A stretch of 23,710 bases of DNA from a virus (lineage: Duplodnaviria; Heunggongvirae; Uroviricota; Caudoviricetes): IMG/VR virus record IMGVR_UViG_2851949629_000009, positions 1-23,710 of that record. One strand, given 5' to 3'. Below are positions 15,001 to 21,000 of this stretch, one piece after another. The number at the start of each line of letters is the position of its first letter. Positions within the stretch are counted from its first letter, which is position 1. A program made the position numbers.

Positions 15001-18000
15001 TACCCATTTCCTTTGACTGTGGAAAGTGGAGGAACCACCGAGCCCGATGTGGTTAAAAGACAGGCACAATCTTTACTACCGCAATCCACTATTTAAGGTG
15101 ATATATGGAAGAAGAATTTGAAGAGTTCGAAGAGCATCCTCAGGATGTGATGGAACAATACCAGGACTATCCGTATGACTACGACTATTGATACAAATCA
15201 ATGGTGTGGACAATTCAAACGATGCAATGGATGCAAGCTGCAATCGGAATGCATGGTTAAGCCTGAAGAAATGTTTCCTGTAATGGAAGATGGGAAATAT
15301 GTCGATAAATGGGCAATACGAACGACGGCAATGATTGCCAGAGAACTTGACAAACAGAACAACAAGGCTGCCTGATGGTAGCCTTTATCTTTGGCATAAA
15401 CAACAGAATAAACACTGCACTGTGTATTCATTCCAACGAGTGAATACACGGAGCAATGTCGCTCGTAACTAAACAGGAGCCGACTTGTTCTGATTATTGG
15501 AAATCTTCTTTGCCCTCTAATGTGAGGGCGATTTTTTATCTGTGAGGATATGAACAGATGTCAAACATCAAAAAATACATCATTGATTACGACTGGAAAG
15601 CATCAATAGAAATTGAAATCGACCATGACGTAATGACAGAGGAAAAACTTCACCAGATTAATAATTTCTGGTCAGACTCTGAATACCGACTCAATAAACA
15701 CGGCTCTGTATTAAATGCTGTATTAACCATGCTGGCGCAACATGCTCTGCTTATAGCAATTTCAAGCGACTTAAATGCATATGGTGTTGTGTGTGAGTTC
15801 GACTGGGATGATGGAAATGGTCAGGAAGGATGGCCTCCAATGGATGGTAGCGAAGGAATAAGAATTACCGATATCGATACATCAGGAATATTTGATTCAG
15901 ATGATATGACTATCAAGGCCGCCTGAGTGCGGCTTTACCGCATACCAATAACGCTTCACTCGAGGCGTTTTCGTTATGCAATCAAACAGAAGGAGCATCC
16001 TATGCAACAGTTCGCTATTGCAGGGGCGGCATCGGTTCGCCCTTTCAACCCAATTTTATCGGTGCAGCATTCACGAAAAAATATTTTAACCGGAGCAGAC
16101 TTTAAACAACCAAGAATGAAAAGTTTGCTCGAAAAGCTTTGGGATATTTTGAAACAACAAGGCCGTCCATGAGTTTTACAGATAACTGGTCAGACGAAGA
16201 ATTCATTCGTCAGATGAAAGAATTAATCGGTAACGAAGGAGATATTCATGTCACTTGCAACCACAGTGAAGGAGAGCAAGTTACAGAGACGCATGTACAC
16301 GCAGAAAGCTCTCTGGTATCGCCATAATGGTGACCGCGAAGGAATGCGGGTATGCCTTAATTTGTCCCGAGTCGAAGTATTAAATCAGCGTTATTTCCTT
16401 GGGCCGTGTCCATTCTGAGGTGAATTATGGATTTGAACAAATTCGATGAGCCATTCAGCCCTGAAGATATCGAATGGCGAATACAGCAAAGCGGTAAAAC
16501 ACGCGATGGCAAGGTGTGGGCTATGGTGCTGGCTTATGTCACGAACCGGGCAATCATGAAACGCCTGGACGATGTTTGCGGCAAAGCAGGATGGCGCAAT
16601 GAATACCGCGATATTCCCAACAACGGCGGAGTTGAATGCGGCATATCAATCAGGATTGATTCCGAATGGGTAACCAAATGGGATGCTGCTGAAAACACGC
16701 AGGTAGAAGCCGTCAAAGGTGGTCGTTCCGGTGCAATGAAGCGTGCTGCTGTTCAGTGGGGAATCGGTCGGTATCTGTATAACCTTGAGGAAGGTTTCGC
16801 ACAAACATCTCTCGATAAAAAACATGGGTGGCACAGGGCAAAACTCAAGGATGGAACAGGATTTTACTGGCTCCCTCCATCGCTGCCGGGATGGGCAATC
16901 CCAGCATCAGATAACAAACCATCACCAGAAAATACCAACCAGAAATCTCCATCGGTTGACTGCGAGCAAATCCTGAAAGACTTCAGCGATTATGCGTCAA
17001 CAGAAACTGACAAGAAAAAACTCATCGAGCGTTATCAGCGTGACTGGCAATTAATGGCTGGCAATGAGGATGCGCAGGCTAAATGCGTTCAGGTAATGAA
17101 CATCAGAGTTAACGAGCTAAAACAGGCGGCATAAATGGCAAGCAGAGGCGTAAATAAGGTGATCATTATTGGTCGCCTTGGGCATGATCCAGAAATCAGA
17201 TATTCACCATCAGGAACGGCATTTGCAAACCTTACAGTTGCTACGTCAGAACAATGGCGTGATAAGCAAACTGGAGAGCAAAAGGAGCAGACGGAGTGGC
17301 ACCGCGTGGTAATGAGCGGGAAACTGGCAGAAATTGCCAGCGAATATCTGCGAAAAGGCTCAGAGGTTTATCTTGAAGGCAAATTACGGACAAGAAAATG
17401 GCAGGATCAAAGCGGACAGGATAGGTTCACTACCGAAGTCATCGTGGGCGTTGGTGGAACCATGCAAATGCTTGGTGGCAAGCAAGGAGGCAATGAACAG
17501 TCTTCACCTCAGCGAAATAACGGTCAGCAACAAAGACAGCAATCTCAGCAGCAGGGGAATCACAGCGAACCACCTATGGATTTTGACGACGATATACCCT
17601 TTGCACCAGTAACTCTCCCCTTCCCTCGTCACGCTATTCACGCAATTTAAGGACTTACATGAATCACTTAATGGTTGACCTTGAAACAATGGGCAACGGG
17701 CCATATGCGCCAGTTATTTCTATTGGGGCGGTATTCTTTGACCCGAATACCGGAGAAACAGGAGAAGAGTTCTCGGTAAATATCTCGCTTGAGTCATCAA
17801 TGCGATATCGGGCGCGTCCTGACGCTTCAACAATTTTATGGTGGATGGAACAGAGTGAAGAAGCCAGAAAATCGCTAACCAGCAACACTCAAGAGCTTTC
17901 AACGGCTCTTTCATGGTTATCTGAATTCATCATAAAGAACGCCAACCACAAACTCGTTCAGGTTTGGGGGAATGGAGCATCATTTGACTGCGTTATTCTC

Positions 18001-21000
18001 CGCAACAGTTATTCGCTGACAGGGCAGCCAGTTCCGTGGCAGTGGTGGAATGACCGCGACGTAAGAACAATCGTCGAACTTGGGAAGGCAATAGGATTCG
18101 ACCCTAAGCGAGATATGCCATTCAAAGGAACTCGCCACAACGCGCTTGATGATGCCATCCACCAAGCCAAATACGTTTCAGCGATCTGGAAAAAGTTAGC
18201 TAAATAATCAACAGGAGAAAACCATGCCAGCGCCTCTGTATGGTGCGGACGACGTGCGCCGCTGTTCCGGCAATTCCGTATCGGAGGTGCTGGATAAATT
18301 CAGAAAAAACTACGATCGGATAATGTCGCTACCGCAGGAAACGAAAGAGGAAAAGGAATTTCGCCATTGTATATGGCTTGCAGAGAAAGAAGAACGCGAG
18401 CGAATTTACCAGACATCAATCCGACCATTCCGCAAAGCCACATATACCCACTTCCCTGAAATTGACCCGCGCCTGCGTAATTACCGCTCACGCTATGGCG
18501 CTATCAGTAATGACTGAGGAATTAACAATGAAAACAATGAAGCTAAACATCGACCTCGGAAAATACGTTATTACCGGAACCAAACACGATCTGATTCTTA
18601 GCGAAAGAGGAATTATCAAAGAAGGCGAGAATGCAGGGAAAGAAACACTAAGCCGTATCGGTTATTACAGCAAGTTTGAGCATCTGGTTAAAGAATTATG
18701 CAACCGTGAAATCCTGTTATCTCAGGCGCAGACGCTACAGGATATTCAGCAGCATATCGAGACTTTAGGTGTGTCACTTAGCATGACCGTTGACCAGTTC
18801 GTGGAGAGTAAATCATGAGAGGACTTGCATACAATCCCGGCATTCTTCCGGCAGAAATGATTATTCGCCAACGCGTAAAGCCAATGCCATCGAGAGAGGA
18901 ATTGCTTAAGCGAAACTCGTTTCCATCAGTGAATCAAAACAAATATCTGAACGCGATGTTGCGGAGTGGGAAGAAATGAAACAAATGTCACTAATTGAGA
19001 TGGATGGTTTTCTGAAAGGTAAATGCATCCCACGAGATTTAAAGGTTAACGAAACAAACGCTGAATATCTGGTGCGTAAATTTGCTGAAGCGGAGGCCAA
19101 GATTTCAGCTCTGTCCGAAGACCACCAGAAAGCGATTGAGTCAATTAAGCAGGCTGATGCGGCTGTTAAGTTGGCACACGAGAAGTTTTCGGCGCTGGCG
19201 GCGGAGAATGCGCGGCTGAATAAATTTATCGTACAGAGTTGCTATGTGTTTAATGGCGAGCAGGATGAAATATCTGATGCGTATATCTGCGCAACAGACG
19301 GAGGTATGCCGCAAATTCCAGCCACCGATGCTTTTCTGGCTGAAGTACGAGCGCAGGGCGTGGAGATGTTTGCTGAGTGCGCATACACACTTGAACATCA
19401 TGATCACGCAGTAGCCTTCGCCGCAGAGCTTCGCAAAGGAGGCAACCAGTGACTGGACATGCAGCTATCCTCGACATGTGCTGTGGCAGTCGCATGTTCT
19501 GGTTCGATAAGAATGACGACCGGGCGATATTTAGCGATATCAGAAAGGAAGAGCACACATTATGTGATGGACGACGGCTGATAATTAGCCCTGACCTGAT
19601 AGCAGATTTTCGTGCATTACCATTTGCAGACGCATCGTTTCCGGTTGTTGTATTCGACCCTCCGCATCTTGAGCGTGTTGGTGATAACGCCTGGATGGGA
19701 AAGAAATATGGACGGCTGAATAAAGATACCTGGCGTGATGATTTGCGGCAGGGATTTAAAGAAGCCTTTCGTGTGTTGCGACCATACGGCGTTCTGATTT
19801 TTAAATGGAATGAAACGCAAATACCTGTTCGCCAGATATTGGCACTGACCGACAGAAAGCCTGTTATCGGTCAACGAACAGGAAAAGGTGACAAGACCCA
19901 CTGGATTATTTTTATGAAGGAGGCGGCCAGTGAGCAAGATTGACTATCAGGCATTGCGTGAAAAGGCAGAGAAAGCAACGTGTGGTGAGTGGTCGCTCGA
20001 ATATGGAGAGAGCCGATTTGATGGTGATGATGCGCTAATTCATCGTGAAGTTGCTGGATATATTCCCATTTGCAGAATTGAAGGAGCGCATCCTGAAAGC
20101 GGTTTCGATGAAGATTTCCAAACTGAACAGCAGGCCAATGCTGAATTCATCGCCGCAGCCAATCCGCTACCGTCTTGGCACTGCTGGATGAGCTGGAAGC
20201 CGCAGAGAAGCGCAACGCAAAATTACAAAGCGAAAATGCATACATCCGCAACCGGTACAAAGAACTGGACCTATTAATCGGGAAAAACATTCTGGTAATG
20301 CAGGCTGCGATTATCGAATGGCAGGCAACTGGCGACGCTAAGAGCGGACTGGCATGGATTTATAACACACTGTTTGGCCCAGGCGAATTGCCGGACGAAT
20401 CTGAGAAAGATGCTCAGGCCTACTTTAATCGCAAATATGCACCGATTGACGAAAAGCTTATGGAGCTTCACAAGTGGTTTTGGGAACAAAGTGAAGCCGA
20501 GCGCGCTGCTGGTATTCGCATCAAAGGAGACTGATATGGCTATTGCCGCAAGTTACACCATGCATCTCTATTGTGACTGCCGCCAGTGTACGGAAGGTGT
20601 ATATCCAGTGCCAGACTTCGGTGAGTATATCGGTACGTCATGGTCTGGTTGTGCAAAAGAGGCCCGTAAAGACGGGTGGCGAATAAGCGCCGACAAAACG
20701 CGTGCTTTTGCGCCCGGGCATAAAGTTTTGAGGATTAACAAATGACCACTATTACCAAAGAGCGACTGCTGACAATCAAGCTGTGGCGCGAAATATACGG
20801 ACCTAGCAGCAACGTTGTACTGCCAGCAGAAGAAGCGGAAGAACTGGCACGAATTGCGCTGGCATCGCTGGAAGCAGAGCCTGTTCTGTATCAGTCCTGC
20901 ACTCGCCCCACCTGGAATATCGGTGTTCCGTGGACGGAATGGAAAGAACGAAGTCGTGATTGCTACGAAGACGATTTGCGCTTTACAGACACGCCTGACC

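Follow-up and report, generated by a model that had tools for sequence, protein, structure and literature searches.

The window, that is the whole stretch of DNA analysed here, is 23,710 nucleotides (nt) long and covers positions 1 to 23,710 of the IMG/VR virus record IMGVR_UViG_2851949629_000009 (Caudoviricetes). The subject is a recombination (Rec) module in its early-left (pL) operon, with genes for an annealing protein, a single-stranded DNA-binding protein (SSB), a DnaQ-like exonuclease and the anti-RecBCD protein Abc2. A first-pass annotation had described a module of three genes (Rad52-like annealing protein, SSB and exonuclease). These open reading frames (ORFs) were recovered where it had placed them, all on the plus strand and tightly packed, and the Pfam profile searches it had proposed upheld the three family assignments at scores well above chance level, with which NCBIfam and PHROGs concurred. 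The three genes are real, but the adjacent fourth gene, abc2, had been overlooked. The genes of the module are the following.

16427-17134, plus strand: annealing protein (single-strand annealing protein, SSAP), 235 amino acids (aa); Pfam Rad52_Rad22
17135-17650, plus strand: phage SSB, 171 aa; Pfam SSB
17659-18207, plus strand: predicted DEDDh (DnaQ-fold) 3'-5' exonuclease of the Rv2179c-like/T4 DexA family, 182 aa; Pfam PF16473
18224-18517, plus strand: Abc2, anti-RecBCD protein, 97 aa; Pfam PF11043

The stop codon of the annealing-protein gene and the start of ssb overlap by one base, the gap between ssb and the exonuclease gene is 8 nt, and no promoter-like site was found inside 16427-18600. 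The region matched 245 phage records, and the full four-gene order was present in mEp235, mEpX2, CurroJimenez, epsilon34, g341c and NM-3. In epsilon34 (genes 36-33), g341c, mEp235 (gp32-gp29) and mEpX2, order and spacing are as in the window and protein identities run from 90 to 100% (92-99% for the annealing protein and 90-100% for the exonuclease), with the same SSB tail. Identity is 99% between the annealing protein and both mEp235 gp32 and Sf6 gp28, and 100% between the exonuclease and mEp235 gp30. From the four family identities, the co-directional packing and the near-identity to the modules of mEp235, mEpX2 and epsilon34, all observed here, the locus is likely to be an Abc2-dependent Rec module of a lambdoid/P22-like prophage, made up of four genes: annealing protein, SSB, DnaQ-like exonuclease and Abc2.

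The module type, DnaQ-like nuclease included, is already known. In the 2008 paper on epsilon34, genes 33-36 were regarded as likely recombination genes, the nuclease was called uncommon in such a setting, and gene 36 was described as like P22 Erf only over the C-terminal 56 residues (PMC2629481). A 2025 survey listed a Rec module with a DnaQ-like 3'-5' nuclease, of a kind that 'curiously, usually inhibit homologous recombination', and DnaQ-like nucleases were judged legitimate members of the Rec module in epsilon34 (PMC12315714). The comment in the first-pass annotation that a 3'-5' nuclease is unusual in this place was therefore fair, but it was already in print in both papers (PMC2629481, PMC12315714). 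The three proteins carry the public names 'Rad52/Rad22 family DNA repair protein', 'single-stranded DNA-binding protein' and '3'-5' exonuclease'.

Abc2 matched Pfam PF11043 (Anti-RecBCD_p2) over its whole length (residues 1-97 of 97; 209 bits, E = 8.7e-63) and PHROG 656 (E = 6.8e-55), and abc2 is annotated in mEp235, epsilon34 and Sf6. In the P22 and HK620 modules, Abc2 binds RecBCD, leading to the preparation of DNA ends (5'-3' resection) for the annealing protein (Hutinet 2018, PMC5928155). By analogy, we infer that 5'-3' resection would be supplied here through host RecBCD and not by an encoded exonuclease; because Abc2 would recruit RecBCD for resection, the exonuclease is not the expected resection partner. 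Gene neighbourhoods were compared in 79 IMG/VR loci anchored on the annealing protein and in 80 anchored on the exonuclease. Abc2 was found in 78/79 of the annealing-protein-anchored loci and the exonuclease in 21/79. The earlier proposal that the 3'-5' exonuclease is the nuclease partner of the annealing protein was not supported by these counts, the constant neighbour being Abc2.

The gene content was set against that of known phage modules. P22 (arf-erf-abc1-abc2) shares a homologous Abc2 (the Pfam model was built on P22 Abc2) and the same early-left position, but its annealing domain is of the ERF type and not Rad52_Rad22, and SSB and exonuclease replace abc1 in the window. HK620 (hkaM-sak4-ssb-abc2) is like the window in having an annealing protein, its own SSB and Abc2; it differs in a RecA-core Sak4, a non-canonical SSB ending in NDYPPF and the lack of an exonuclease, although Sak4-type modules carrying a window-like exonuclease occur in other species. 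The HK620 SSB acts by way of its C-terminal residues to stimulate the annealing protein (PMC5928155). Lambda Red and Rac RecET have the same operon position and the same purpose, phage single-strand-annealing recombination. Red brings its own 5'-3' exonuclease and Gam, which blocks RecBCD, whereas in the window RecBCD would presumably be retooled by Abc2 and an SSB is encoded; unlike in Red, the only exonuclease encoded in the module is from a family of 3'-5' polarity. The first-pass annotation had noted the absence of lambda exo, bet and gam, and no homolog of them was seen in the operon ORFs scanned with PHROGs or Pfam: neither a lambda-Exo/RecE-type 5'-3' exonuclease nor Beta/RecT nor Gam was found in these ORFs (19930-20745 and 21559-22334 were outside the scan).

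The annealing protein matched Pfam PF04098 with 91.1 bits (cut-off 20.3, E = 8.9e-26), residues 4-136 aligning to positions 7-153 of the 153-position profile, and all 120 of its homologs among the matches listed carry PF04098. The AlphaFold2 model (mean predicted local distance difference test score, pLDDT, 83) has an N-terminal beta/alpha domain, a linker and a three-helix C-terminal domain, which were delimited as follows.

16436-16834 (residues about 4-136), plus strand: Rad52-type annealing domain (Pfam)
Residues 162-175: disordered linker (AlphaFold2)
Residues 179-234: C-terminal domain of three helices, P22-Erf type (AlphaFold2 and identity to Erf)

When the model was compared with the PDB using Foldseek, the top seven matches were to Mgm101 (9YI9, 9YI7, 9YI6) and human RAD52 (5JRB, 8RJW), with probabilities of 0.95-1.00 and a best E of 1e-3, and these were the only high-probability folds. 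PDB sequence searches, run with the single sequence and with a 38-sequence profile, retrieved no RAD52-family chain; they returned only a non-significant resemblance to WW domains. The stretch concerned, GWHRAKLKDGTGFYWLPPSLPGWAIP (window 16811-16918, residues about 129-164), resembles the PRP40 WW domain at E = 0.08-0.5, which is not significant. AlphaFold places short strands there at 126-128, 136-139 and 145-149, and W148, P151, P154, W156 and P159 are invariant across 38 homologs.

Over its last 60 aa the protein shares 73% identity with the P22 Erf C-terminus, and the ERF domain itself (PF04404) gave no Pfam match in the protein at E <= 1. The annealing protein is a chimera of a Rad52-type N-terminal and a P22-Erf-type C-terminal domain; the earlier description as 'Rad52/Sak-like' held for the N-terminal domain and was incomplete for these C-terminal 60 aa. 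'Erf-like' is the label given to such annealing proteins in PHROGs and in older annotations. In Klebsiella and Citrobacter modules that contain the exonuclease, ERF-type proteins also bear the Erf-type C-terminal domain. One candidate RAD52 protein in the comparison set (locus L187) was rejected, its match having come from the common C-terminal domain and its Pfam assignment being ERF. Staphylococcal 80-alpha Sak and its SSB (Nat Commun 2025) offer a structural parallel, with a Rad52-fold ring annealase, a separate C-terminal domain and an adjacent cognate SSB; no sequence similarity to the window protein was detected by phmmer or by profile against PDB sequences, and the canonical SSB tip is internal in the window. 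On SSB-coated DNA, 80-alpha Sak requires both its C-terminal domain and the last seven residues of SSB (PMC11846896), and RecT/Beta proteins depend on the SSB tail (bioRxiv 10.1101/2020.04.14.041095). Given these analogies, the Erf-type C-terminal domain of the annealing protein is probably a partner-binding domain.

The SSB matched Pfam PF00436 with 131 bits (E = 2.1e-38), which places the oligonucleotide/oligosaccharide-binding (OB) fold at residues 6-105, and NCBIfam TIGR00621 (ssb) with 184.8 bits (cut-off 53.95). The profile matches end at residue 156. Up to the IPF motif the protein is 99% identical to Sf6 gp27, and its OB-fold allele is of the Sf6 type (99%), as against 74-75% for the mEp235/epsilon34 type. 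The segments beyond the OB fold are the following.

Between the OB fold and the acidic motif: Gln-rich linker
17579-17602 (residues 149-156), plus strand: acidic motif DFDDDIPF
17603-17647 (residues 157-171), plus strand: 15-aa tail after DFDDDIPF

The first-pass annotation had called this a full-length SSB with an acidic tail. The acidic motif is present, but it is not C-terminal: 15 residues lie beyond it, and D-D-D-I-P-F does not form the extreme C-terminus with a free Phe. Of the 120 closest SSB clusters (Escherichia, Klebsiella, Salmonella, Citrobacter), about 116 have a tail of exactly 15 aa. This tail follows the pattern [AS]PVTLPFPRH plus 5 residues, with a near-invariant PVTLPFPRH core and conservative variation in the last five, and its DNA is 90-100% identical, compared with 69-77% in the OB-fold region. 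A divergent tail, AQPFLQYPELIYAI, is carried by the Tolumonas SSB encoded beside a 49%-identical exonuclease. No mention of the tail motif was found in the literature searched. Partner proteins of E. coli SSB need its free C-terminal Phe, and the 15-aa tail should for this reason, by analogy, alter which partners the phage SSB can bind.

The idea that the tail travels with the exonuclease cassette arose from the window, mEp235 and epsilon34, which have both, and Sf6, which has neither. It was rejected, as the tail occurred without the exonuclease in 39/79 loci and the exonuclease with an SSB ending at IPF in 8 loci. Near-identical annealing proteins were paired with both SSB forms, tailed and ending at IPF, among the 79 loci. 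Since both forms are found with each protein, the tail is needed by neither the annealing protein nor the exonuclease. In relatives, the module is invaded by two unrelated free-standing HNH endonuclease genes that are absent from the window, one lying between the annealing-protein gene and ssb and the other exactly after the ssb IPF codon (examples at L003 4450-4929, Sf6 gp26; L013 3504-3992; L089 4709-5176). The post-IPF HNH gene is present in about one third of the loci; the SSB then stops at IPF and the HNH frame ends in the tail codons.

The exonuclease matched Pfam PF16473 with 246.9 bits (cut-off 27, E = 1.3e-73), residues 2-177 covering positions 1-177 of the 177-position profile, and the generic RNase_T profile gave only a weak match below its cut-off (E = 9e-4). 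Its best PDB sequence match was T4 DexA (8KEL/8KEN; phmmer, 8KEL E = 1.1e-13), and the dexA genes of T4-like phages are detectable as homologs. The catalytic residues D7, E9, D110, H160 and D165 align to D7, E9, D119, H186 and D191 of T2 DexA, and across the range from 100% to about 30% identity they do not vary, T2/T4 DexA included. The protein is about 31% identical to T2 DexA, 45 residues shorter and without the extra loops of DexA. A 3'-5' polarity is predicted from this family membership; members of PF16473 differ in substrate, Rv2179c acting on RNA and DexA on DNA.

In every one of the 80 exonuclease-anchored loci the gene lies between ssb (or the HNH insert) and abc2. It forms a clean cassette, which fits exactly into the space from the ssb stop codon to the ribosome-binding site of abc2. 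In a set of 5,426 complete E. coli genomes, 1,099 carried abc2, 400 the annealing-protein gene and 172 the exonuclease gene, and within the E. coli/Salmonella lineage the exonuclease is an optional accessory. A cross-species set of 80 loci, with one genome per species, was then compared. Where the exonuclease was at least 67% identical to that of the window, the order annealing protein-SSB-exonuclease was kept in 11/11 informative loci, and a distance of 8-20 nt separated the end of ssb from the exonuclease start. In these loci the annealing protein was Rad52_Rad22 in 3, ERF in 3 and AAA_24/Sak4-type in 5 (for one of the five, L193, the score of 26.5 bits falls marginally short of the 27-bit cut-off), and the preceding SSB was of the classical type or of the unrelated HK620 type. 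Two remoter exonucleases (55% and 49% identity) likewise come after an ssb. Judged by gene order, the clade of the window exonuclease is tied to SSB-containing recombination modules and not to the Rad52-like protein. In a Photorhabdus prophage of this set (L177/L193), a second predicted 3'-5' exonuclease (2008-2694; PF10108, PolB-exonuclease-like) stands before the Sak4-SSB-exonuclease set, and that module thus encodes two DEDD-type exonucleases.

Such clean cassette boundaries, with the ssb stop codon on one side and the ribosome-binding site of abc2 on the other, would also be expected of a neutral or selfish passenger, kept since the ssb-abc2 junction tolerates insertions. An HNH gene sits at the same junction in about one third of the loci, a second HNH gene lies between the annealing-protein gene and ssb, and the exonuclease is absent from most related loci, all of which fits a passenger. 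We nevertheless consider this explanation highly improbable. All catalytic residues are invariant from 100% to about 30% identity, and the two SSB types that precede the exonuclease are unrelated, with 3' ends that have no sequence in common, so that a shared insertion site cannot explain the position.

For the exonuclease as a working member of the module, a sequence of steps can be proposed, those for Abc2, the SSB and the annealing protein being inferred from published work on P22, HK620 and 80-alpha. Abc2 would bind host RecBCD, giving 5'-3' end resection without Chi. The 3' single strand would be coated by the phage SSB (or by host SSB), and the Rad52-fold protein would be recruited through its Erf-type C-terminal domain to anneal complementary strands. 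The exonuclease, acting on SSB-coated strands, might then remove 3' tails or 3' flaps that lack homology, leaving the annealed ends fit for extension or ligation. The 3'-5' exonuclease DexA takes part in the scavenging of host DNA and in intron homing, which is a double-strand-break repair reaction (PMC12153337), and a 3'-5' exonuclease in phage recombination has a precedent because DexA acts in intron homing. On this analogy with T4 DexA, 3'-end or flap trimming on SSB-coated DNA is tentatively put forward as the role of the exonuclease, a possible reading that falls somewhat short of probable.

Several points weigh against the reading of the locus given so far. In the host, 3'-5' exonucleases of the DnaQ-like kind are as a rule inhibitors of homologous recombination (PMC12315714). 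The substrate class of the exonuclease (DNA or RNA, single or double strand) is predicted from its family alone, and that Pfam family is named for an exoribonuclease. Most loci with the same annealing protein are without the exonuclease, which is therefore dispensable, and its place after ssb may in part be owed to a junction that tolerates insertions, an HNH gene also being found there. The Foldseek TM-scores of the annealing protein are low (0.25-0.45) despite the high probabilities. Finally, a sister clade of the exonuclease (at most 63% identity) adjoins xis/int, with no annealing protein or SSB nearby. The family is hence not intrinsically tied to recombination.

The sister clade includes ST64B sb30, mEp460 gp26 and genes of many prophages, and its neighbours encode DUF2303, a YfdR-type phosphatase, RdgC, and Ea22 or DUF551. 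In loci L166, L170, L178, L181 and L182, which belong to SfV/ST64B/mEp460-type prophages, exonucleases of about 60% identity lie directly before xis/int, in an operon with DUF2303 (YfdQ-like), YfdR-type deoxyribonucleoside 5'-monophosphate phosphatase and DndB-like or RdgC proteins. These neighbours hint at a different role for the sister clade, in nucleotide or DNA metabolism. A service in nucleotide or RNA metabolism was also weighed for the window exonuclease, either in host-DNA scavenging, as for classical T4 DexA, or as a 3' exoribonuclease like Rv2179c. The sister-clade gene shares its operon with a phosphatase of deoxyribonucleoside 5'-monophosphates, the Pfam family takes its definition from Rv2179c, an exoribonuclease of M. 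tuberculosis, and scavenging of host DNA is among the established roles of DexA. Wholesale degradation of host DNA is not, however, known from lambdoid phages, and the clade of the window exonuclease always adjoins ssb in Rec modules, not nucleotide-metabolism genes. A metabolic role was considered very unlikely.

The kinship with DexA raises one further explanation, in which the exonuclease serves superinfection exclusion as an HREX-like anti-phage nuclease that degrades the 5-hydroxymethylcytosine (5hmC) DNA of T-even phages and is merely lodged in the module. The plasmid-borne EcD, an E. coli DexA homolog, protects from T4 and cuts T4 (5hmC) DNA and not unmodified double-stranded DNA (PMC12153337). 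The window exonuclease belongs to the same DEDDh (DexA) family as EcD. Of the residues known from DexA (8KEL/8KEN), the catalytic set is shared and W152 is kept as W130, while the tetramer residue D90 is replaced by A83, which is the same kind of change as in EcD. In favour count also that the gene is an optional cassette and that the sister clade occupies an int-proximal, moron-like position. EcD is nevertheless a distinct protein with different termini, its primers encoding MIDTET... where the window exonuclease begins MNHLMVDLET...; none of the 120 exonuclease homologs listed starts with MIDTET, and a search of viral contigs with the EcD primer 20-mer gave a single chance match, at which there was no exonuclease ORF. 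DexA D169, said to be key to 5hmC recognition, has no clear equivalent in the alignment and is probably absent. The gene belongs to the pL operon, which a lysogen keeps repressed, and it lacks a promoter-like site of its own. The strict position after ssb across three annealing-protein families would be unexpected for a free-standing defence gene. Against the PADLOC defence models, the exonuclease scored only weak, generic DEDDh matches, and neither the annealing protein nor SSB nor Abc2 matched at all. A defence function of this kind was regarded as unlikely. Trimming of 3' ends or flaps ranked as the most likely role, followed by HREX-like defence, nucleotide or RNA metabolism and a neutral passenger.

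The pL-operon setting named in the first-pass annotation was borne out by the flanking features, with the repressor and cII genes on the opposite side.

8962-9258, other strand: cII
9671-10378: cI-type repressor (PHROG/Pfam scans)
About 11432: boxA-like nutL region
11611-14152, minus strand: IS66-family element (Pfam DDE_Tnp_IS66, TnpB_IS66 and HTH_Tnp_1 on three ORFs)
14194 (start codon): N
15175: ral, early-left operon
16139-16327 and 16248-16418, plus strand: two small out-of-frame overlapping ORFs, directly upstream of the annealing-protein gene
From 22637: integrase

The IS66-family element has termini GTAAGCG and an 8-bp target duplication, ACCTACCT, at 11603-11610 and 14153-14160. It sits between the pL/nutL region and the N start codon, and such an element between pL and N sets the window apart from the modules of epsilon34, g341c, mEp235 and mEpX2. 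The Rec-module genes are intact in the window. Because the element separates the operon from pL, the insertion probably impairs pL expression of N and of the whole early-left operon, Rec module included, and the prophage may be defective. The exact IS-bearing arrangement had no match among the complete E. coli genomes of the collection. A second IS66-family copy (about 690-2821, plus strand; ORFs 370-795, 792-1142 and 1173-2786) is about 90% identical to the first and inverted relative to it. The 8.8 kb between the copies hold the replication and immunity genes, and recombination between the copies could invert this segment.

The two small ORFs upstream of the annealing-protein gene matched PHROG 2123 (E = 1.2e-41) and PHROG 1723 (E = 9.4e-36), whose 'recombinase' label has no evident basis. 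They are homologs of HK97 gp42.1/gp42 (mEp235 and Sf6 annotations) and occupy the place of P22 arf and HK620 hkaM, and are candidate module members only. ORFs of similar size (about 52 and 65 aa) precede Rad52-/Sak4-type genes in L186, L188 and L189, the likeness being one of size and place only. A DNA methyltransferase-like gene (19449-19943; PHROG 954, E = 1.5e-88) lies in the same operon, a few genes downstream of the module.

The discovery value of the locus is small, as sequenced phages have proteins 99-100% identical to these, the public annotation is correct, and the module type is published. What remains is a pointer to the role of a 3'-5' exonuclease inside a single-strand-annealing module. 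Added here are the linkage of ssb and exonuclease across three annealing-protein families and the conserved tail that would mask the SSB tip, neither of which was found stated in the literature consulted. In a speculative and rather unlikely extension, the conserved tail would be functional, masking the Phe carboxylate to give a 'private' phage SSB, with the exonuclease as a dedicated SSB-directed end trimmer. If that were true, ExoI, RecQ, RecJ, RecO and PriA would lose the Phe carboxylate, and phage recombination intermediates would be shielded from host nucleases and helicases. SSB and exonuclease would then form a functional pair in its own right, able to join annealing modules of the Rad52, ERF or Sak4 type. 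A recombineering potential of the module, which the first-pass annotation had suggested, is plausible. Both additions bear on the cooperation between annealing protein and SSB, which currently limits the portability of recombineering systems.

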